From a virus: 64,000 bases of DNA. The first letter of the stretch is position 1; every line of letters starts with the position of its first letter. The position numbers were made by a program, and so were the translations under genes. This document shows positions 1,296 to 50,658 of this stretch, piece after piece. Below the pieces are notes generated by a model, which worked only from the letters and a program-made list of their open reading frames with translations, had not been told where the DNA came from and searched no databases. The stretch is from IMG/VR virus record IMGVR_UViG_3300023181_000029, positions 1 through 64,000 of that record. One strand, given 5' to 3'.

Positions 1296-1489
1296 GCCAG
1301 TTTTGCGTGTACACATTAAGCTGGTAATATTGGAATCAATTTCGTTACCTTATATGATTCCTAAATATCTTTCGATATGAACCCATAATTACTCATTATG
1401 GGGGTGTTATACAAACATAACACTATAATTCCTGCTGTGCAATACCTCTCTTTCCTATGAACAAAGCAATCATGGGGGTGCCTATAGTA

Positions 1490-14481: not shown

Positions 14482-15079
14482 GCAGGAAGACTTCAAGAAG
14501 ATGCGCTATAACCCAATGGAAGTTCCAAAGGGCACTAGTCTATTAGACCACTATCCGACGCTTAAACTTTATAAGGAGCTTGACAAAAAGGTAGTAGGGT
14601 TTGACGCTGATAAAATACTATCCTACGTTATATTCCTAATAGATGACAATTCGCCGTTCTTTAAAGTAGAGGATTTCGCGCAAAGGCACCGATTGGCCGC
14701 GCAGCAAGCCGGACTAAAGGAAACCGACATTGAAAAGCTGGATATAAAGAGTAACGTTGCCCTTAATTCGATATTCTCAGGCTATCTGCGGGTAGTAAAC
14801 AGCGATGACTTTACGTTGTGGTTTTCTTTAAAGCAGAACTTCTACAACAACACTGAAATGATACGCGATGCTACACTTGAGGGCAACGACCCCGTAATGG
14901 CGGTAAAGCGTAAACAGGAAATAGGCATAGCGCTTAAAGATTCCCTGAACACAATCCGCGACCTAGAGGCTAGATTGTTTAAGGACGAAAGAATAAAGGA
15001 TAGGGTTACGCAATCAGCAATGATAGAAATGGTTAACTGGACAGAACGTTTGGCTGACCCATCAGGCACAGTACATTGA
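14471..15079 (+). CDS. Helical protein upstream of terminase (possible small terminase)
   Basis: Position only. Confidence 0.4.
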   Translation: MKFKQEDFKKMRYNPMEVPKGTSLLDHYPTLKLYKELDKKVVGFDADKILSYVIFLIDDNSPFFKVEDFAQRHRLAAQQAGLKETDIEKLDIKSNVALNSIFSGYLRVVNSDDFTLWFSLKQNFYNNTEMIRDATLEGNDPVMAVKRKQEIGIALKDSLNTIRDLEARLFKDERIKDRVTQSAMIEMVNWTERLADPSGTVH

Positions 15080-17199
15080 GAGAATACACGATTAGTTGGC
15101 ACCAAGGCTTAACAAAGCAAATCGGCGAGTTTCAGGTTCCTATACCTGACATGCCGGAGCCTAAAGATATTATCAACTACGGACTACCGGCGCATAAGCA
15201 GTTCTTTGTTCGCACTATTATCCCAGAGGATATAATCACACGCACCTGTTCGCTACAAGTTGAAGAAAAGTTTGTTGAGCGAGAATGGCACCGTAGGCGT
15301 AACGGCGTATGGATGTATATTAAGGGTGAAGCACATTGGCTCCCCGGCAAGTTCTACTACTTTATGAATTACTGGACGTGCGAGTATGGCGGGTTGCCGC
15401 ACTTCCGTTTAGTGCAATTAAACGTAGCTCAGTTCTGGGAAATGTGCGTAGCTGATAAAGATTGTTTTGGAATGCTACTCATAAAGCCACGTAGGGTAGG
15501 CGGAACAGAATATGCGCTATGTGATACAGCCGAACATACTACTAGGGTAGATGAGGCTAGGGCAGGTATGCAAAATATGACTGACGACGACGCGAAAGCA
15601 GATGTCACGCGTATTAACAAGGCGCTAAAGAAGATGCCTCACTACTTTTTGCCGGTAATGGCAACTCCGTTTACCTCAAAAGATAAAGTGGTGTTCGACA
15701 TACCTAGCGAGCGTCAAACTAAAGCAAAATCACAAGAGAAGTTTAAGAGAAGCGCTGAGAATAAGGGTATTAAGGTGCTAGGGTCTGAAATAATCATCGA
15801 GGCAACAAAAATATCAGGCTTCGACGGTAAACGTTTAACGCGCCACAGGTTAGGTGAGTGCCTAAAAATAGACCCCGCGCGGATGAACATTAAGACGCAA
15901 TGGAATAACGTGCGTATGTGTATCTCGTTAAATAACGGGCAAGATTTAGTAGGTAAGGGCTATTGGGAATCTACAGTAGAGCAGGCGGAGGGCGGTAAAA
16001 ACAAAGAACTAACCAACTTAAAGCAGGTTCAAGAATTATGGGAAGAATCAGACCCTATGATTCGCGATAGGAACGGGCGCACATTATCTGGCATGTACCG
16101 TCTGTTTATTGATGCATCACAAGCCGCCAAAGTGGATGAATACGGATATCCTGAATCAGAGAAAACGGTTAAATTCCTATTGCAGCAATGGGAAGACTGG
16201 ACTAAGAAAGGAAAGTTTGACGATGTTTTGATTGACCAGCGCAAAAACCCGCTCACAATAGAACACGCGCTTACTCCAAGTAACGAGCAATGCCCATTCT
16301 TACCTCAGATACTAAAAGAAAGACTAGGCAAGATATTCCAAGGATTAGACTATAGAGGCGAAACTACCGATGTATTTGGGCGCGAAGTAAAAGATAAGGT
16401 AGGGAAATTTAATCTTATCCGCGAAGGCGGTCAGCAGGATGGTCGGGTTATCGCGGTTCCTGACCCTGAGAATGGACGGTGGGAAATGCTACTAGGACAC
16501 CCAGAAGAAACCAACAAATCGACGTTCTCAAACAACGCCAAATATCCTACCAATACCGATAAGTATTGTATGGGCGTTGACCCTTACGATGACGCTACTA
16601 CTGCCTCAGTCTATCATAGGTCAAAGGGAGCCTGTGTAGTATTTAGGAAGTTTGATTCATTATTAGATGGCAACAAATACGATGTAGTTCAAACTACAGA
16701 AGGCGAAATACAAAAACCACTTGCAGGACAGTATGCGTCGTTTATGCCCGTAGCAGTCTATGTGCACAGGCACGACAACCCTAAGCATTTCTATGAAGAC
16801 ATGGTAATGACGGCTCAATTCTTTGGATGTGAAATGCTACCTGAAACTAATAAGAAACAAATCATACCATACTTCCAAGAGCGAGGTTACGGTAGTTACA
16901 TAATGTATCCACCGGGCTATATGTTAGACGGCAAAACAGTTCGACAGCCGGGGCTTGCATCTTCTACCAACGTAATAGAGGACTACATGCAAAAAATTCA
17001 AGCATACGTATCCGAATATGGCGACGCTATACATTTTGCAACGCTACTGAAAGATTTATTAATGTTCACTCCCGCCACACGTAAAAAGCGGGATTTATCA
17101 GTAGCATTCGGCTTTGCATTGATAGCCAACTCAAATCTATTTGTTCAGGAACTAGACGACGATATATCAACGTTCACCCTAGACTTCCATACTTTGTGA
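15076..17199 (+). CDS. terL: Terminase large subunit
   Basis: KPRRVGGT P-loop region, EST motif, GVDPYD nuclease Asp, ETNK, RDLSVAFG; precedes portal. Confidence 0.9.
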   Translation: MREYTISWHQGLTKQIGEFQVPIPDMPEPKDIINYGLPAHKQFFVRTIIPEDIITRTCSLQVEEKFVEREWHRRRNGVWMYIKGEAHWLPGKFYYFMNYWTCEYGGLPHFRLVQLNVAQFWEMCVADKDCFGMLLIKPRRVGGTEYALCDTAEHTTRVDEARAGMQNMTDDDAKADVTRINKALKKMPHYFLPVMATPFTSKDKVVFDIPSERQTKAKSQEKFKRSAENKGIKVLGSEIIIEATKISGFDGKRLTRHRLGECLKIDPARMNIKTQWNNVRMCISLNNGQDLVGKGYWESTVEQAEGGKNKELTNLKQVQELWEESDPMIRDRNGRTLSGMYRLFIDASQAAKVDEYGYPESEKTVKFLLQQWEDWTKKGKFDDVLIDQRKNPLTIEHALTPSNEQCPFLPQILKERLGKIFQGLDYRGETTDVFGREVKDKVGKFNLIREGGQQDGRVIAVPDPENGRWEMLLGHPEETNKSTFSNNAKYPTNTDKYCMGVDPYDDATTASVYHRSKGACVVFRKFDSLLDGNKYDVVQTTEGEIQKPLAGQYASFMPVAVYVHRHDNPKHFYEDMVMTAQFFGCEMLPETNKKQIIPYFQERGYGSYIMYPPGYMLDGKTVRQPGLASSTNVIEDYMQKIQAYVSEYGDAIHFATLLKDLLMFTPATRKKRDLSVAFGFALIANSNLFVQELDDDISTFTLDFHTL

Positions 17200-17256: not shown

Positions 17257-19764
17257 TTGCCGGATTATTTAGCCAATCAGTTTCTCAATACGTCTGATTT
17301 TATGGGAGGGAACCACCCCTTTCCAGACGAGAATATTGACCCCAAAAAGAAAGGCAAGGATTACTGGTTAAAAGTAGTCTACGCTACTTGGCACCTATAC
17401 CTGAACAACAGGTGCATTGTGCCGTATAATTTCCCGTCAACAGGGTTTGATGATTCGGAATATTCTATAGACGAGCAACGCGCATATGCAACCGGCAAAA
17501 TAAACGTCAACAAATACAAGCCATTATTAGCGCAACTATCTAAATCAACGCACCCTGTATTGGCTGGCAAGACCATGATGAATATTTCATGGAGGCAGGT
17601 TCCTATCATTCCTAAGTTCGTAGACATTGCCAAGGGAATGTTTATGCAGATGGATTACGACTTCGACGTTAATTCTGTTGACGCGCGCGACGTAGAAGAA
17701 AAGGAATTGCAAAAGGCGTTCTATAAAGTAGAGCACAATATAGAGTACCGCAAGTTCGTAGCGGGCATGGAAGCATTGGGTGTTCAGGTAAATAAAGAGG
17801 CCAAGGATAAGTTTGAGAGTGAAGCCCAAGTAGACCTAGCAGCAATGATGGGCATGTTTAAGGTAGCTCACGAAGCCGAACTATACACAGCGCTTAAAGC
17901 TACTATGGACGCTAGTTCATGGGACATTATTAAGGATAAGCTGTTTGAGGATTTAATATCTGTTTCCAAGACTGCTACTTGCACATACGTAGAGCCTAGT
18001 ACCCAAACAGTAAAAACCCGTTGGGCTGATATACGCAATGTCATCAGCAGGAAGTCTCCGTATGAAGACGGTCGTACTATTGACTGGATAGGCGAAATAA
18101 GATACAATGTAACTATCTCAGAACTTCGTGAGCAATTCAAGGTCGAGGAAACTACATTGCGTAAAATAGTGAAGGACTATTCGCAGATGCGGAACTGGAA
18201 CGCCACCAATATATACAATACAGTATATCAGGGGCAGTCATACGCGCAGAACGGATTCTATAGTTACGATGGATTTGGTGTTGACTTGCTTGAACTATAC
18301 TATATATCCGGTGATACCGAAAAGTACACCGAGGTATACAATAAGAAAAAAGCCAGAACCTCATTCAATAAAGTAGGTAACGATTATCAGGAAAGCGAGG
18401 AAGGCAAGAAAGACGGCAAGAAACTGAGTACCGTTCGCGAGGAAAGACTATATAAGATAGTATGGGTTGTAGGCACTGACATATTAGTAGAATGCGGATT
18501 AGCGCACGATGTACCATATCAGGACGGCAAACCAATGTTGCCTATTCAGGTCTATGATACAAAAACCGTTTCCCTAGTTTCCAGAATGATAGGGTTTCAG
18601 GACGACATAAACCTTGCTACTTATAAATTTAGAAATGCACTAGCTAAAGTGCCGCCACCGCCACGCATGCAAGTAGAGCAACGTTCTATATCGAATGTTA
18701 CGCTTGGCGGCACTAAGATGAAGGAAACGGACGTTATTAATCTGTTCGGAGAATCGGGCTTATTCCTTATGAATAGCCTGAATGACCACCGCCAACCGAA
18801 TAGCGCGACACCCGGCAGACCTGTTACATACTTACAATCAGGTATAGCAGAAGACTTCGGAATGTTTATTCAGACCATAGACCACAACATCAATATGATG
18901 CGACTGGTAATAGGCATGAATGAAACCGCTGACGGTTCTACTCAGGGCGAAAGAAAAGCAGTAAGGGTAGCGCAAATGGAAATGAATAGCACTAATAATG
19001 CTTTGTTTCCTATACAGCGTGGCTATATATCAATCTTTGAGCGCACAATGGACGTTGCTATGTGCAAGTGGCAGATAGTAGCAAGCGGCGGCAAAGAAAT
19101 AAAATACAAGGGGCTTAATCAGTCTACTTACGATATTATTAAATTAGGCGCAACACATAGTGCGCGTAATTTCGGCTTAAAGGTTAAAATCCTGCCGACC
19201 AAAGAAGAACTGAAACAATTCTTGGTGAATATCGAGAACATGTACGCAGGTCGCCAACAGACAGGACAAGGCGGTATTAGCTACGAAAAATACATCATCC
19301 TCACTAGAATAATTCAAACCGGCAACCTAGACCTTGCTCAGTTGATGGCTGTTCAATTGGTCAACAAGCAACGCCAAGAAGACGCAGAAACCAAAGCGCA
19401 GGATGTACAACTAAATGCTGACCAGCAAATACAATCAGCACAAGCCGCCAACGAAATGAAGATGGGCGAAATCCAGATGGAAATCGACCTGCAACTCAAG
19501 GCTGATATGCAGATGAAAGATTTGGATTTCCAAATGAAAGAACTGGAATCGCAACTTAGAATGCAGGAAATGATTTTGCAAAGTAAACTTGCAAAAGGCG
19601 AAATAGAAACTGTAGAGCAGTTTGAAACTATGCGCACCACTATGAAGTTAGCTATTCAGGAACAGAAGGACGCTTTAATGGCGGCAACTCAAATAAAGAT
19701 AGCTGAAATATCCGCAGCAGCTAAGAAACAAACTGCTAACAAATCGAGCAAGAAAGTTGCGTAA
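17257..19764 (+). CDS. Portal protein
   Basis: VPIIPKFVDI, SLVSRMIGFQD, IGMNETADGS motifs; long coiled-coil barrel; follows terL. Confidence 0.85.
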   Translation: MPDYLANQFLNTSDFMGGNHPFPDENIDPKKKGKDYWLKVVYATWHLYLNNRCIVPYNFPSTGFDDSEYSIDEQRAYATGKINVNKYKPLLAQLSKSTHPVLAGKTMMNISWRQVPIIPKFVDIAKGMFMQMDYDFDVNSVDARDVEEKELQKAFYKVEHNIEYRKFVAGMEALGVQVNKEAKDKFESEAQVDLAAMMGMFKVAHEAELYTALKATMDASSWDIIKDKLFEDLISVSKTATCTYVEPSTQTVKTRWADIRNVISRKSPYEDGRTIDWIGEIRYNVTISELREQFKVEETTLRKIVKDYSQMRNWNATNIYNTVYQGQSYAQNGFYSYDGFGVDLLELYYISGDTEKYTEVYNKKKARTSFNKVGNDYQESEEGKKDGKKLSTVREERLYKIVWVVGTDILVECGLAHDVPYQDGKPMLPIQVYDTKTVSLVSRMIGFQDDINLATYKFRNALAKVPPPPRMQVEQRSISNVTLGGTKMKETDVINLFGESGLFLMNSLNDHRQPNSATPGRPVTYLQSGIAEDFGMFIQTIDHNINMMRLVIGMNETADGSTQGERKAVRVAQMEMNSTNNALFPIQRGYISIFERTMDVAMCKWQIVASGGKEIKYKGLNQSTYDIIKLGATHSARNFGLKVKILPTKEELKQFLVNIENMYAGRQQTGQGGISYEKYIILTRIIQTGNLDLAQLMAVQLVNKQRQEDAETKAQDVQLNADQQIQSAQAANEMKMGEIQMEIDLQLKADMQMKDLDFQMKELESQLRMQEMILQSKLAKGEIETVEQFETMRTTMKLAIQEQKDALMAATQIKIAEISAAAKKQTANKSSKKVA

Positions 19765-45662: not shown

Positions 45663-46197
45663 CGATAGAGTGGTAAAGATAGCTATGTGGGTTTTACGGC
45701 AATATAACATGACAGAAATAATCTGTGCGGAAAATCTTCAATATCTGCTAAAGAATACTATACTGGTGTCTATTGGGTTCTTTGCTATCGTGGAACTAAT
45801 AATAGATTATCCTGTACGGCTTATGGCTGTATTTGTTATATTGGGTATATTTTGCGACCTAACTTGTGGAATATGGGCGAATTGCTGGAAGGGTGACGAA
45901 AAAATTAGCCCTAAGAAAATAGCAACCTCGATAGGCTATGGAATATACCTAATATCACTGATAGTGCTGCTTTCTTACTTCAAATACATCATTAGCGTGG
46001 TGGAACTGAAATGGGGACACGATTTGTTAGTATTCAGCGTAGACGCGCTTTTTATAACGAGTATTAGTATTTTTTTTATATCCCTTGTATTAAACATAGT
46101 ATCAAATGGCGCAAAAGTTGGAGTATATGGGTGTAGAAGGCTTGCTAAAGTACTAAAATTGAAATTAGACCGAATAAGTGATGACAACGGTAATTAA
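45607..46197 (+). CDS. Multi-TM holin-like membrane protein (start uncertain)
   Basis: Four hydrophobic segments, DLTCGIW motif. Confidence 0.55.
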   Translation: MVLCQKTLRYLEMELSRNNDRVVKIAMWVLRQYNMTEIICAENLQYLLKNTILVSIGFFAIVELIIDYPVRLMAVFVILGIFCDLTCGIWANCWKGDEKISPKKIATSIGYGIYLISLIVLLSYFKYIISVVELKWGHDLLVFSVDALFITSISIFFISLVLNIVSNGAKVGVYGCRRLAKVLKLKLDRISDDNGN

Positions 46198-46339
46198 TAC
46201 ATTTTTTGCTCTTTCGCTACTAGGCATAGGTGTGGTGGCTTGTGCGCCTGCTTTCCTTTATGGCAAAAAGCGCCTACAGCCGATGTGGCTGGAGATTAAG
46301 CATTTTGTGATGTCGTTGTTTTATCGAACGCATCCATAA
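46181..46339 (+). CDS. Small membrane or lipoprotein-like peptide, 52 aa
   Basis: MTTVINTFFALSLLGIGVVACAP...; possible lipobox, no basic n-region. Confidence 0.4.
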   Translation: MTTVINTFFALSLLGIGVVACAPAFLYGKKRLQPMWLEIKHFVMSLFYRTHP

Positions 46340-46367
46340 ATCAGAGTGTATTTTTATCGGTCATAGG

Positions 46368-46571
46368 TTATTTATCTTTGTGCCAGTCATATATTTCGCC
46401 ATCTGCGCTTCGGTAGGCGAAGTCGCCAGTGAAGTCATCCAAAAAGTAGTAGCTCAAAGCAACAAAGAAATCTTTAATTGCTGGCGTCATTTCGGAATCT
46501 GGAATGCTTAAAGCCTTATTCTGCAATACACGGTACCTTAATGCTTGCTCTGTTTTTATTTCTGTGCTCAT
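46368..46571 (-). CDS. Hypothetical protein
   Basis: ATGA overlap. Confidence 0.6.
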   Translation of the reverse strand: MSTEIKTEQALRYRVLQNKALSIPDSEMTPAIKDFFVALSYYFLDDFTGDFAYRSADGEIYDWHKDK

Positions 46572-46660
46572 ACTGTAGGGGTTAATTCGGTTGGGGTGTT
46601 AGATTGAAGCATAGTGGACGCAATAGCTTCCCAATAATCATAACCTTGCTCGGTTTCAGC
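46564..46660. repeat. Inverted repeat partner of 1..97
   Basis: Exact reverse complement. Confidence 0.95.
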
Positions 46661-46807
46661 CCATCCAAATGCAGATTTTAACGCCAAATAAAACGTACTA
46701 TACGACATTAGGTTACTATGCTTATCATCGCTATCTAGCCCGTAATAATATAATGCCTGCTCCCTTATAGGCTCTGGCAATCTATCTAACCATTGTGCTA
46801 TTGTCAT
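46568..46807 (-). CDS. Hypothetical protein, paralogue of 59887..60099
   Basis: LPEPxRxQAL..AFxW..(Y/F)DYW shared. Confidence 0.75.
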   Translation of the reverse strand: MTIAQWLDRLPEPIREQALYYYGLDSDDKHSNLMSYSTFYLALKSAFGWAETEQGYDYWEAIASTMLQSNTPTELTPTV

Positions 46808-47028
46808 TTCTTGGTGGTTTCAAGTTCAATTATAAAATCAGGCTTGCTTAGCTGTAGGGTGTAGCCGTAGTGGTTGAATAGCTTTACCATGTCGGGGAAC
46901 TTAGGTACCCATAAGCCTTTCTCATACTTGCGGTAGGCTACCGTGGATACCCCCATGCCTGATGCTGCTTCGCTTTGTTTTTGCTTGTGTAGCTTACGAT
47001 AGTGGGTTAATAGTTCGGGTGTGGTCAT
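46804..47028 (-). CDS. XRE-family HTH regulator
   Basis: QSEAASGMGVSTVAYRKYEKG..P. Confidence 0.85.
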   Translation of the reverse strand: MTTPELLTHYRKLHKQKQSEAASGMGVSTVAYRKYEKGLWVPKFPDMVKLFNHYGYTLQLSKPDFIIELETTKK

Positions 47029-47091
47029 TTTAGTAATAATAATCCCTTAAATGCGCAGGAAATACGTTTCCAATAATTTCGCTTTCAAATT

Positions 47092-47319
47092 TCATAATAC
47101 TCTGTTTATTTCCTTTAGAAAGGCATTCCATTCAGACATGTTGCCAATGGTTCCAGTGCAAGCCATACGTTCTATGTGTTCAGCTAAAAGAGGGTATTTT
47201 TCAAATGGCTGCTTATTTGCTTCTTCTGCCCCTTTTACTTCCCACCCAACACCAAAAATAGCATCCATTAACTTTTGCTCCTGTGGTGTATATCCATTCT
47301 TATTTGTCTCGGTGCTCAT
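47092..47319 (-). CDS. Hypothetical protein
   Basis: ORF in minus operon. Confidence 0.6.
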   Translation of the reverse strand: MSTETNKNGYTPQEQKLMDAIFGVGWEVKGAEEANKQPFEKYPLLAEHIERMACTGTIGNMSEWNAFLKEINRVL

Positions 47320-47336
47320 ATCTATGAGGTTTTAGT

Positions 47337-47627
47337 CTATCCATTAGTTAATAATACTCTACAATTGTTAACCGCCACTTCAAAGTCAGAGGTTATATCG
47401 TAGCGGCTTGATTGCAACATTACCTCAACCGCTTCGCTACCTGTAGAGCATGGGTTAAATTCCCATCCCAAGTTGTTTTCATAGAAATTATACCCGCGCT
47501 GCTTCTCTTTACTGTCAATCCAGCAGACGGCTATTGTTTCATGCTCTTTTTTGTCAAGAATAAAATACTTGGCGTTTACTTTAAGCCATTCAAGGGTTAA
47601 TATTCTTTCTTCTGTTTCTGGTGTCAT
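47337..47627 (-). CDS. Hypothetical protein
   Basis: ORF in minus operon. Confidence 0.6.
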   Translation of the reverse strand: MTPETEERILTLEWLKVNAKYFILDKKEHETIAVCWIDSKEKQRGYNFYENNLGWEFNPCSTGSEAVEVMLQSSRYDITSDFEVAVNNCRVLLTNG

Positions 47628-47797
47628 ATGGTTTCTTTTACGTAATCTTCAATTGATAATTCACTGCAAAAACTTTCGTACACATCACCACGTGTTGGTA
47701 GCCGGTATTTATACCCCGCAACCTCTAGGGCTTCACATATTGCGCTCCAATACTTATCAAGGTCTTCGTTGTACCAGTTATCTGTTTGTGTGCTCAT
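47624..47797 (-). CDS. Hypothetical protein, 57 aa (not in ORF track)
   Basis: MSTQTDNWYN...; overlaps both neighbours. Confidence 0.6.
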   Translation of the reverse strand: MSTQTDNWYNEDLDKYWSAICEALEVAGYKYRLPTRGDVYESFCSELSIEDYVKETI

Positions 47798-47937
47798 TAT
47801 CTATCTAATTGGCTTTCGTTAATGTAAAAGTACATTCCATATTCATGTGAGTTAATAAACTTTTCAGCTTTCTCTCTTGTGCTAAAGCCCTGAATATAAC
47901 TATCCGTAATTTCTCTAAAAACTAAGTACACTATCAT
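47797..47937 (-). CDS. Hypothetical protein, 46 aa (not in ORF track)
   Basis: MIVYLVF..GFSTREKAEKFI; follows promoter. Confidence 0.6.
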   Translation of the reverse strand: MIVYLVFREITDSYIQGFSTREKAEKFINSHEYGMYFYINESQLDR

Positions 47938-47942
47938 GTTTG

Positions 47943-47987
47943 TGGTTTTTGTCTTACAAATATAACACAAAGGTTTTGATTTAGCAA
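47943..47987 (-). promoter_or_regulatory. Promoter and leader, copy 1
   Basis: TTGC..TATATTTG-TAAGACAAAAACCAC on minus strand. Confidence 0.7.
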
Positions 47988-48023
47988 GTCTAAAGACGCT
48001 ATTATATGAAGTAACGTTTCCTT

Positions 48024-48737
48024 TTACCGCTTCTGCTTCTCGATGAAGTTGGCAAAGTAGGTATTATCCATGTAGCGGAGCGTGTCAAGCAAGTGGGTGC
48101 GCTTTAAATCCGTTTTCACCATGCGCCCTTCCTCTATAGCGTCTTTCATCAACTTGCCTGATTCCCAGCGCACTAGCCTCATGTCCTCAATAAGGTTATA
48201 GCAGCTGGAATGAAACTTCCTGTTAGGGTGGCGGCCAAGTATCGTATTTGATAAAGTCCGGCTCTCGCTTACATTGGGGTTGGAGCGGGTTACATCAATC
48301 TTTGCGGGCTTTAGCACTTGCTGTACTATTTCCCAATCCCGGAACCTGGATGAGGTCTTACGTGCCCAGCCGCTACTATCACCGGTGCATCTTATGTGGC
48401 AATGCCCTAACTCGGCTTTAATCCTTTCGCATAGCTTTTCAGTGTTGCTATCGTTCAAATTATATTCCTTGAGCGTATAGTACCAGCCATCCCCGTACTG
48501 ATGCACAGAGCATGTTATAGGATCTACGTTAAAGTCAAATGACAAGTAAACGGTAAGCCGTGGGTTGATAGTTATTGAATCGTCAATAAAGGATTCATCC
48601 CAGCAGTACATAAATGGATTCGTAACCTCTGTATGGCCCCATTCGCCTTTAAAGTATATCCGGTAGTAGTCATAGATGAACACAAAAGTAATCATCGTAA
48701 TTGGAATTATAAACAAGAGCCTGTCAAGCAACATCAT
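48024..48737 (-). CDS. TM helix fused to terminase-type RNase H nuclease domain
   Basis: YRIYFKGEWG, SFDFNVDP, GDSSG, NP..ESR, HLLDTLRY; no ATPase domain. Confidence 0.75.
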   Translation of the reverse strand: MMLLDRLLFIIPITMITFVFIYDYYRIYFKGEWGHTEVTNPFMYCWDESFIDDSITINPRLTVYLSFDFNVDPITCSVHQYGDGWYYTLKEYNLNDSNTEKLCERIKAELGHCHIRCTGDSSGWARKTSSRFRDWEIVQQVLKPAKIDVTRSNPNVSESRTLSNTILGRHPNRKFHSSCYNLIEDMRLVRWESGKLMKDAIEEGRMVKTDLKRTHLLDTLRYMDNTYFANFIEKQKR

Positions 48738-48892
48738 TGTAAAACACTTAAGCAGGTTACCATAAGGACTATTAAAGACAGTATAAGCGTAAAACTAGTA
48801 AAGGCAATAGTATAAACATGAGCCTCAAATTTGCGTCGCCCGCCATAGCTTGCTAAATACCTATTATTCCAGAGTGTAATAAATTCCCTCAT
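48734..48892 (-). CDS. Small membrane protein, 52 aa (not in ORF track)
   Basis: C-terminal hydrophobic helix; ATGA overlaps on both sides. Confidence 0.55.
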   Translation of the reverse strand: MREFITLWNNRYLASYGGRRKFEAHVYTIAFTSFTLILSLIVLMVTCLSVLQ

Positions 48893-49119
48893 AAGGTGCG
48901 GTTTTTAGCTTTCATATCAAGCAAACCGTTCAATACAGTCAAGATATAATTAGCACCAATTAGGTTAACGATAGGAATAAATGCAACTATCAGTAATGGT
49001 TTCTTCTTAAAATTCTCATCCTGCCGGGCTGCCCAAAACGTAAAGCATACAATAACAAGCAATGGGAATACGTATGCAAATACACTAATCCATAAATACT
49101 CCTCGTTAGTAAACTCCAT
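48889..49119 (-). CDS. Two-TM membrane protein
   Basis: Hydrophobic helices, FIPIVN motif. Confidence 0.65.
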   Translation of the reverse strand: MEFTNEEYLWISVFAYVFPLLVIVCFTFWAARQDENFKKKPLLIVAFIPIVNLIGANYILTVLNGLLDMKAKNRTL

Positions 49120-49123
49120 AGCC

Positions 49124-49168
49124 GTGGTTTTGTCCTACAAATATACACCTTGCTTTCTATTGTGCAAA
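49124..49168 (-). promoter_or_regulatory. Promoter and leader, copy 2
   Basis: TTTGCA..TATATTTG-TAGGACAAAACCAC on minus strand. Confidence 0.7.
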
Positions 49169-49187
49169 TTTTTGTCGTACAAATATT

Positions 49188-49631
49188 TTACTTCTTTACG
49201 TCAATGCGAGTTTTAGCCTTATGACATGACTTGCATAGTCCTTGAAAATTCCACAAACCCATTCCGCCACCGCCTTTATGAACCGGCAATATGTGGTCAA
49301 CATCATCAAAGCCTTCTACGCCGCAATGTTTACAGAAATCCCCTTGAGTAATATACAACATACGCCGTATAGACGAACTATCAGAGGAGCATAACCGCCA
49401 TAACCACTCTAATGTAGAAGCACATTCGCTAGAAGACCAGCGCGTTTGACGACCTGTAATCGGTGTTCCGCAGCCACAATCGCATAATCCATCGTTCTTA
49501 GGCGGCAATAATCTAGTAAAGAAATTAGATGTCTTTTGTCTGCGGCTGTATGGATTAATAATACCATCAGCAACCAACTTATTAAATCGGGCTAAATCAT
49601 AATTGGCTACTATTTGTGGTATTGTATCCAT
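49188..49631 (-). CDS. HNH endonuclease
   Basis: CxxC..DVDHILPVHKGGG..NFQGLCKSCHKAKT; TAGCTTTG box 49640..49647. Confidence 0.85.
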   Translation of the reverse strand: MDTIPQIVANYDLARFNKLVADGIINPYSRRQKTSNFFTRLLPPKNDGLCDCGCGTPITGRQTRWSSSECASTLEWLWRLCSSDSSSIRRMLYITQGDFCKHCGVEGFDDVDHILPVHKGGGGMGLWNFQGLCKSCHKAKTRIDVKK

Positions 49632-49665
49632 GTGTAGAACAAAGCTAAATAGAATTTCCTGTAAT

Positions 49666-49673
49666 GGGCAGGG
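49666..49673 (+). other. KOPS-like octamer GGGCAGGG pointing toward dif
   Basis: Matches GGGNAGGG. Confidence 0.55.
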
Positions 49674-49740
49674 AGTATTAATACTATAAATGGTAAAAGG
49701 TAATTGCTATAGGGTACCTGTGATATAATGAGAGGTGACC

Positions 49741-49908
49741 TGCGGAAATGTTTCGGGAATACTAATATTGACTATCTCTGCTTGATAACAATCTTGCTTG
49801 ACAGAGTATATGTGTACTTCGTGCATGTATACCGGGCATTTAATCCGCGAGGGCAAGTCGCTCAATCTCGACCGGGTACATCAACCTCACGAAATCCTAA
49901 CTTGCCCA
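49741..49908 (+). ncRNA. Candidate structured ncRNA
   Basis: Nested stems with G-U pairs favouring the + strand. Confidence 0.4.
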
Positions 49909-50273
49909 CCAATTTCAAAACCAAAGCACAAAAGCCAGTCCATACTATAGAACTAAGCTAAAACATGGTTATGACGTAGCGATACATCAATTAATCATGT
50001 GTGCTAATGGGAATGACTTACTGTGTGGTATGTGCTAGGCTGTGGTGCTAATGCGAATTATCTCATTAGGTTGCAATACGTCTATGGTTAAGTTATCATA
50101 CACGCCAGTTAAACGACTAGGTGAATATAACGACTGCTCATACATTGTATGTATTTCAATTAAGTATCTTGTTTGGTTGCTCATAGGGCTAAGGTAATAA
50201 TATTGCAGTTAACTATATTAGCGATGATAGTTTACAATGCGCCTAATTACATGTTATTTCTGGATTATCGGTG

Positions 50274-50286
50274 GGGTAGGGGAGGG
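50274..50286 (+). other. Two overlapping KOPS-like octamers
   Basis: GGGTAGGG 50274..50281 and GGGGAGGG 50279..50286. Confidence 0.6.
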
Positions 50287-50311
50287 GCTGAGGCACACTG
50301 ACATAATGGCT

Positions 50312-50339
50312 ATTTAACATAAACGTGGTTATCGTGGGA
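50312..50339 (-). other. dif: dif-like XerC/XerD recombination site
   Basis: Minus strand TCCCACGATAA-CCACGT-TTATGTTAAAT; XerD arm identical to the canonical dif arm; 11-6-11 layout; intergenic. Confidence 0.8.
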
Positions 50340-50353
50340 TTTTGGTAAACGCT

Positions 50354-50381
50354 GGAAACTTTAAATGTTCCCGCAGTTTCC
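50354..50381. promoter_or_regulatory. 28-bp imperfect palindrome, copy 1
   Basis: GGAAACTTTAA-ATGTTC-CCGCAGTTTCC. Confidence 0.6.
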
Positions 50382-50433
50382 TATTGCAATCCTCATACCT
50401 ATGTATTATCTTTGTTGACATAAGTCGCTGCAA

Positions 50434-50658
50434 ATGATTAGTAAAAGCCCACTTTTGGCAAAAGACATACTTAAGGAAGCACGTAAAAGGCGTAAATTGA
50501 CGCTATCGCAGGCCGCAATAGTTACTAAAATTAAGGCATCGACACTATCAAGGTATGAAAACGGCAACAGAAAGATATCAGCAGATGACTTTATAAGTAT
50601 TTTGGGTTATTATAGTGCTCATATTGCCATTATTGAGGCAGATTTTCTATTAACTTGA
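50434..50658 (+). CDS. XRE-family HTH regulator
   Basis: LKEARKRRKLTLSQAA..STLSRYENGNR; promoter TATCTTTG 50407..50414. Confidence 0.88.
   Translation: MISKSPLLAKDILKEARKRRKLTLSQAAIVTKIKASTLSRYENGNRKISADDFISILGYYSAHIAIIEADFLLT

Follow-up and report, generated by a model that had tools for sequence, protein, structure and literature searches.

The subject of this analysis is an open reading frame (ORF) of 237 amino acids (aa) on the minus strand of a virus genome (48024-48737), in which a short hydrophobic leader is joined to the nuclease half of a large terminase subunit (TerL) of a different family from the phage's own TerL. The window is the first 64 kb (positions 1 to 64,000) of IMG/VR record IMGVR_UViG_3300023181_000029, a 78.6-kb virus contig, and coordinates are those of the window unless stated otherwise. 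Judging from the relationship of its resident TerL and from its promoters of the form TTTG-N19-21-TAnnTTTG, the virus is a Bacteroidota phage. CheckV rates the record 68% complete and terminal repeats are absent, yet the record is probably near-complete, since complete relatives measure 62-75 kb. The locus is also present in a public leaf-litter metagenome run. The 237-aa ORF lies within a minus-strand cluster of small genes (approximately 46.4-50.2 kb) flanked by a structural/lysis arm and a replication arm, both on the plus strand.

The 237-aa ORF and the resident terminase

Residues ~22-237 of the ORF (48024-48674, minus strand) comprise the last helix of the ATPase lid or linker and a complete RNase H-like nuclease domain and, to judge by homology, are the nuclease half of a foreign TerL of the Terminase_3/6 type. 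A HMMER search of 1.8e9 representative proteins returned 961 matches, 294 of them at E<=1e-10. The best is a 422-aa TerL (62% identity, E 2.4e-81), to residues 215-421 of which residues 22-237 align; nearly all other relatives are 400-475 aa long, and the close ones are all full-length TerLs of 400-450 aa. These relatives bear the Pfam domain Terminase_3 (PF04466) or Terminase_6 (PF03237), and their family profile matches Sf6 gp2 and the D6E TerL. The ORF itself falls below the Pfam thresholds, and its only PHROGs match is a weak one (phrog_10250, a short "terminase large subunit" family, E 0.0019).

Homology begins at YYRIYFKGEWG, the last helix ahead of the nuclease domain. The three expected acidic residues are D68 in SFDFN (codon 48536-48534), D120 in GDSSG (codon 48380-48378) and D218 in HLLDTLRY (codon 48086-48084); in an alignment of 99 family sequences the first two are invariant and the third is at least 90% conserved. 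The ORF retains all 16 positions conserved at 90% or more and 39 of the 44 conserved at 70% or more, as a typical bona fide member of the family does. An AlphaFold2 (AF2) model has a mean predicted local distance difference test score (pLDDT) of 89.6, reaching 97-98 across residues 41-190, and its top Foldseek matches are the D6E TerL and the terminase nucleases of P22, SPP1 and G20c. The sole lineage-specific indel is an in-frame insertion of 9 residues (27 nt) in a beta-hairpin (approximately residues 196-204).

The first 21 codons (48675-48737; 44% T, GC 0.33) are not derived from a TerL: the family profile gives no alignment to these residues, and their Kyte-Doolittle 19-residue window scores 2.17, whereas the corresponding region in 54 full-length relatives gives -0.44±0.39. 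The ATG overlaps the stop codon of the upstream ORF (ATGA). Exactly at the homology breakpoint (48671-48674) the GC content falls from ~0.46 in the foreign terL DNA to ~0.33, the AT-rich DNA beyond being of resident type (GC ~0.33-0.37). The uninterrupted hydrophobic run is ~16 residues long with a proline inside, and AF2 predicts a helix at residues 14-29 (pLDDT 53-71). Throughout 48675-49119 the coding strand is 36-44% T, and among random open stretches of such local composition 10-28% pass the threshold for transmembrane-like (TM-like) segments and 2-7% reach the observed value; for open 22-codon stretches, the length relevant to the leader, the figures are 28% and 7%. The prior for an in-frame join by chance is 1/3. 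A 15-nt near-repeat (14 of 15 bases) links 48078-48092, the LLDTL codons of HLLDTLRY, with 48717-48731, the LLDRL codons of the leader; it is probably a coincidence, as we estimate that ~0.4 such pairs are expected by chance in the region.

When the whole 78.6-kb record was searched in every frame with P0016, nine N-terminal domains and the family profile, no ATPase-like sequence was found, only the C-terminal half. A residual ATPase pseudogene upstream of the junction was considered and rejected: an in-frame, non-significant extension to 48773 appears versus one relative only, and the family profile stops at 48674. Measured against a functional TerL, the ORF has the RNase H-like nuclease domain with its three conserved acidic residues and, by homology, membership in Terminase_3/Terminase_6 (E 2.4e-81 to a 422-aa member), but it lacks the ASCE ATPase with Walker A and B motifs, its alignment starting at residue ~22 (positions 210-216 of 422-430), and it lies outside a packaging module, its neighbors being an HNH gene, two small TM-like ORFs and small accessory ORFs.

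The resident TerL (15076-17199, plus strand) is a T4 gp17-like protein of 707 aa with ATPase and nuclease domains (phrog_6681, E 2e-64), and it adjoins a gene for an 835-aa portal protein (17257-19764, plus strand). It is ~25% identical to the TerLs of Flavobacterium and Cellulophaga podoviruses and matches no Pfam family or PDB sequence. Its nearest database relative, on a 77-kb contig, is only 35% identical, which places the phage in a poorly sampled Bacteroidota lineage. Modeling gives the resident TerL two domains, with an alignment to T4 gp17 that extends over 685 columns and C-terminal matches to the nuclease domains of RB49 and G20c; D502, E590 and D673, which we take to correspond to the acidic triad of gp17, are invariant in its family. 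Profile-profile comparison of this family with that of the 237-aa ORF gave no useful alignment; the two belong to different TerL families. Complementation of a nuclease-less resident TerL by the fragment is ruled out by the gp17-like two-domain model and the invariant D502/E590/D673: with both domains present, nothing needs complementing. The initial annotation, made from the sequence alone, had described a hydrophobic N-terminus joined near 48670 to a TerL nuclease domain of another family than the resident TerL, with the three acidic positions kept and no ATPase domain; homology searches and the structure prediction agree with it on each of these points.

The ORF might instead be the 3' piece of a split terL, divided by an intron, a split intein or separation into two genes, whose 5' piece lies in a part of the genome that was not sequenced, or it might be an assembly chimera. 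The 68% completeness rating and the absence of terminal repeats leave room for a missing piece, split terL genes are documented, and metagenomes repeatedly yield short ORFs (220-233 aa) for the TerL C-terminus only: 11 of them form one cluster (P0034, P0183-P0192; six of exactly 231 aa, on contigs of up to 11 kb) and Atlas clusters have 52-75 members. These short ORFs are probably split genes (3' exons) or partial calls, and the hydrophobic leader is absent from them. Against a split gene stand the complete TerL beside the portal gene, the lack of a Terminase_3-type ATPase anywhere in the 78.6 kb and the probable near-completeness of the record. A split intein was rejected by inspection, the 21-residue leader having no intein end motif (HN followed by C, S or T); the leader is also far shorter than known intein halves. 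Against a chimera, a single 31.7-kb contig of the Logan assembly of the leaf-litter run covers 47000-50500, including the junction, with 0 differences at ~14x word depth; this is the support of a second assembler rather than of a second sample, as the run is probably from the same sample as the source. Either origin is very unlikely.

Donor lineage, composition and evolutionary rate

The fusion of leader and nuclease domain is unique among ~15 billion proteins and IMG/VR. No other truncated or TM-tagged copy of the fragment's lineage was found in the phage collection, IMG/VR, the JGI metagenomes, a word search of 5.8e9 clusters or the 1.8e9 representatives. At 40 IMG/VR loci that were checked the open frames are of 409-457 aa, except for one 259-codon frame and one running off its contig. 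In ten phage records linked to this phage by the resident TerL, of which three are complete and have terminal repeats, a profile search detected no Terminase_3-type sequence; as a positive control, the same profile recovers the fragment from the genome studied here at E 4e-85. Scans with single proteins (the resident TerL, the HNH protein and the 76-aa ORF product described below) found no close relatives of the phage; distant ones (TerL 25-34% identical) lack both the HNH gene and the fragment, and the endolysin is common to just one of them. The search that the initial annotation had proposed, for the same TM fusion in other phages, accordingly came back empty. That annotation would also have discounted a fusion that was both unique and nearly identical to a full-length terL of another phage; the fusion is unique, but the nearest full-length terL is only 62% identical.

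The closest relative, the 422-aa TerL, is encoded on a 5.4-kb metagenome contig (Ga0247817_10007024, hereafter L083), where a small membrane ORF, a TerS-like gene and terL are followed directly by a gene for a 69-aa helix-turn-helix (HTH) protein. Over its full length, this protein shares 41% identity with the product of a 74-aa HTH_3 gene of the window (46804-47028, minus strand), which lies on the same strand as the fragment and 1 kb downstream of it. Thus, the order TerS-TerL-HTH of L083 is collinear with the truncated terL and the HTH gene of the window, at 62% and 41% identity. The rest of the cluster has no match in the ~100 loci compared. Between the two matching genes lie four small AT-rich ORFs (47092-47970, minus strand; 57, 57, 96 and 75 aa) with their own copy of a promoter motif; they may be a later insertion or part of a donor arrangement that has not been sampled. 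The first of them, directly downstream of the fragment (47797-47970, minus strand; 57 aa), is DUF7336-like, just under the Pfam threshold (24.2 versus 25 bits).

The GC content at third codon positions (GC3) of the fragment is 0.574, the highest among 127 non-overlapping ORFs of the genome (mean 0.395±0.05), and its codon-usage score is ~2 standard deviations below that of resident genes. The terL genes of the donor type have GC3 values of 0.53-0.58. The composition of the fragment is therefore that of the donor lineage and not that of this phage. The HTH gene ranks second of the 127 (0.541), and because of this value it is counted with the fragment as part of the same imported material. The next GC3 outliers (0.52) are small ORFs at 74755-74952 of the genome (minus strand) and 386-568 of the window (minus strand), which may be other recently imported genes.

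In a Tajima-type relative-rate test versus the full-length sister with six outgroups, the fragment showed no acceleration (unique changes 16 versus 23, 25 versus 20, 18 versus 18 and 16 versus 16). In pairwise comparison with the terL of L083, synonymous sites are saturated (proportion of synonymous differences 0.75; nonsynonymous divergence 0.34), so that the ratio of nonsynonymous to synonymous rates is uninformative. On the rate test and the conserved positions, a long neutral decay of the fragment is excluded. The same results fit purifying selection and recent capture alike; the unameliorated GC3 favors recent capture, and an intact frame and active site are then uninformative on function.

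Operon context, origin and possible functions

The 237-aa ORF is the last of a three-ORF unit in which neighbors overlap by ATGA. The first ORF (48889-49119, minus strand; 76 aa) has two TM-like segments and a modest in-frame codon signal, and no homologs of it were found. The second (48734-48892, minus strand; 52 aa) has one C-terminal TM-like segment; it is a doubtful gene, as it has neither homologs nor a codon-usage signal. Ahead of the unit is a consensus match to the Bacteroidota-type promoter (TTTG-N19-TATATTTG, 49138-49168, minus strand), one of 6 matches to TTTG-N19-21-TAnnTTTG in the window versus 1.8 expected. The initial annotation had seen here an operon made up entirely of membrane protein genes with its own promoter: the promoter, the ATGA overlaps and the TM-like segments are there, but the 52-aa ORF is doubtful and T-rich DNA of this kind would yield TM-like segments by chance in 10-28% of cases.

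An 18-nt extended motif, ATATTTGTAnGACAAAA, consisting of the Bacteroidota -7 box and the start region, occurs on the minus strand at 47946-47963, 49127-49144 and 49169-49186, with a weaker copy at 1405-1419 (minus strand). Two copies 42 nt apart precede the 76-aa ORF, and the copy at 47946-47963 precedes the next operon. Confined to the minus-strand accessory cluster, the motif may represent a phage-specific promoter class or an operator. Directly upstream of the three-ORF unit is a free-standing HNH endonuclease gene (49188-49631, minus strand; 147 aa) that departs from the usual codon usage of the phage (0.05 bits per codon versus 0.26±0.09) and has no homolog in the ten related phages; it is probably mobile itself.

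Two further observations concern the cluster and its surroundings. Starts of the form ATGAGCAC... (Met-Ser-Thr) are common to many small genes, both in the window (46571, 47319, 47797, 50184 and 51932, minus strand) and on L083 (1996, 2202 and 2788), which could reflect either a common initiation context or a gene pool on which both draw. A G-rich tract (GGTGGGGTAGGGGAGGGG) and palindromes of the form GGAAACT-N14-AGTTTCC lie at ~50250-50420, immediately upstream of the minus-strand cluster; a repeat scan of 45900-50500 brought out no repeated copy of a dif-like site.

The most likely reading, to which we give about an even chance, is that a young, unameliorated block of foreign DNA, whose edge cut through terL, became fused in frame to T-rich resident DNA, giving a by-product of recombination that is probably expressed and whose function has not been selected. 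It leads on account of the uniqueness of the fusion, its foreign composition and its collinearity with a donor-type locus. The donor would be a phage lineage of soil or leaf litter with small (~420-aa) terminases of the Terminase_3/6 type, of which L083, with its TerS-TerL-HTH order, is the closest sampled member. Illegitimate recombination would have carried into the accessory minus-strand cluster a block of DNA that had the fragment at its edge and included the HTH gene (46804-47028). The breakpoint at 48671-48674 would have severed terL just before the end of its ATPase domain, and the T-rich resident DNA to which the fragment was joined in frame would have supplied an ATG and 21 hydrophobic codons. 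The HNH gene next door (49188-49631) possibly stimulated the recombination, a role proposed because HNH homing-endonuclease genes cluster near terminase genes and at the boundaries of genetic exchange (Barth, Dunham, Seed, bioRxiv 10.1101/2023.03.23.533998). The consensus Bacteroidota promoter ahead of the unit and the ATGA overlap with the upstream ORF suggest that the chimera is probably transcribed and translated, and the product is predicted to fold well, as an RNase H-like nuclease domain that is competent for catalysis and bears a hydrophobic tail at its N-terminus. Most likely its decay has not yet begun, as would be expected if little time has elapsed since the capture, and it bears no sign of shaping by selection.

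Several observations weigh against a young by-product. The frame is intact, none of the three acidic residues or of the highly conserved positions has been lost, the model reaches a pLDDT of 97-98, and the lone lineage-specific indel, of 27 nt in the beta-hairpin, preserves the frame. The start codon is ATGA-coupled to an upstream ORF behind a consensus promoter, with an extended motif common to the next operon. The nearest sampled donor is only 62% identical, so that the youth of the capture is read from composition alone, and small neighboring genes on L083 are also low in GC3, so that the GC3 contrast is partly gene-specific. Finally, four resident-looking ORFs separate the two imported genes, which calls for a second event or for an unsampled donor arrangement.

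Some of these features would also suit an exapted nuclease that, having no ATPase and being tethered to the inner membrane together with one or two small membrane proteins, cuts DNA non-specifically. Its proposed targets are the host chromosome or superinfecting phage DNA that has stalled at the membrane or been misrouted from it. The catalytic triad and all conserved positions are intact, the rate is unchanged and the fold is predicted with confidence; the hydrophobic leader is found in no relative; the gene has ATGA coupling, a consensus promoter and TM-like partners; and it lies in an accessory, antisense cluster typical of such functions. Isolated TerL nuclease domains, as reported for SPP1 gp2, are active metal-dependent endonucleases in vitro (PMC3592435). 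On the other side, the fusion is a singleton with no second occurrence in the databases searched or in related phages, and given its donor-like composition its intactness weighs little. The hydrophobic core is only ~16 residues with a proline, and by our reading of its flanks the positive-inside rule leaves the orientation ambiguous; in an N-in topology the nuclease would come to lie outside the cytoplasm. No coding signal is seen in the 52-aa partner, and neither the nuclease ORF nor its two small partners match defense or superinfection-exclusion families in PADLOC, Pfam or PHROGs, the only match being the weak one to phrog_10250. An exapted membrane nuclease is thus a tentative possibility. 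It is somewhat more doubtful that the captured domain and the small membrane proteins act together as a weapon, destroying DNA at the envelope, such as a blocked superinfecting genome, or sabotaging co-infecting phages of the donor lineage via their portal.

The fragment could also interfere by binding rather than by cutting, either as a dominant negative that, through its conserved C-terminal arm, engages the portal or TerS of L083-type phages infecting the same cell, or as a decoy or sponge for the terminase sensors Avs1-3 and Upx. At its C-terminal tail it hardly differs from the closest full-length TerL (FIEKQ-R), and the D6E structure paper proposes a contact between C-terminal arm and portal (PMC5727402). 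The AF2 model also matches, by Foldseek, the Avs3-bound terminase 8DGC; SeAvs3 binds a natively folded nuclease domain, and for KpAvs2 certain nuclease domains can suffice as a trigger (bioRxiv 10.64898/2026.04.30.721860). EcAvs2 and Upx, on the other hand, recognize the ATPase domain (same source), which is absent here, and a nuclease fragment could trigger sensors as well as block them. The fusion does not recur, it shows none of the accelerated evolution expected of a conflict gene, and a decoy gains nothing by keeping its catalytic residues. Such interference is unlikely.

The initial annotation had offered a membrane-tethered nuclease, an Avs decoy, a dominant negative and a recombination relic without choosing among them. 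Uniqueness, composition and collinearity favor the last, and the evidence neither supports nor excludes the other three. An intact active site and an absence of decay are expected of a young relic and of a selected gene alike. Even as a mere leftover, the ORF would illustrate cleanly, and in a way that can be dated, how new ORFs arise through phage mosaicism, here from half of a foreign gene, a resident promoter and a chance hydrophobic leader, and it would caution against inferring function wherever catalytic motifs are intact. Should it prove functional, it would be the first known instance in which the nuclease domain of a terminase was exapted to work alone as a membrane-bound enzyme, and the nuclease half would join the terminase-derived fragments, so far ATPase-like, that are suspected of roles in phage-host or phage-phage conflict. 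As a membrane-based weapon, it would show a core packaging enzyme being turned, by a new route, into a means for one phage to act against another.

Comparison with known systems

Nothing in the databases searched matches the architecture as a whole, in which a TerL nuclease domain with a hydrophobic leader occurs in a phage that also has a complete TerL of another kind. The small large-terminases of the Terminase_3 and Terminase_6 families (the 422-aa TerL of L083; Sf6 gp2, 4IDH/4IFE; D6E, 5OE8) have the same RNase H-like fold, three acidic residues, beta-hairpin and C-terminal arm. Unlike these full-length enzymes, the fragment is without the whole ASCE ATPase (~210 residues) and without an adjacent TerS or portal gene, and it has the 21-residue hydrophobic leader and the 9-residue hairpin insertion.

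Isolated nuclease domains of SPP1 G2P (2WBN/2WC9), P22 gp2 (4DKW), G20c (5M1F) and P74-26 (5TGE) have the same boundaries and fold (target TM-score 0.59-0.66, Foldseek probability 1.0), and laboratory constructs of this kind are reported to show that the domain alone can fold and cut DNA (PMC3592435). Those domains are laboratory truncations of working terminases, whereas the ORF described here is natural, bears a hydrophobic leader and belongs to a phage whose packaging enzyme is a different one.

Split or fragmented terL genes, such as the intron-split terL of ICP1 and the 220-233-aa ORFs of metagenomes, likewise present a C-terminal-only ORF with an HNH or homing-endonuclease gene nearby. 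In contrast to them, this genome has no 5' exon or ATPase piece, and it has a second, complete TerL of another family.

Another parallel is offered by the mosaic junctions and gene remnants at the exchange boundaries associated with homing endonucleases in phage genomes (Barth, Dunham and Seed 2023), where a foreign segment likewise ends inside a conserved gene, with an HNH gene beside it, in a variable region. Here, however, the recipient has no homologous terL at the site, so that the join must be illegitimate, and the remnant has gained a start codon and an operon context.

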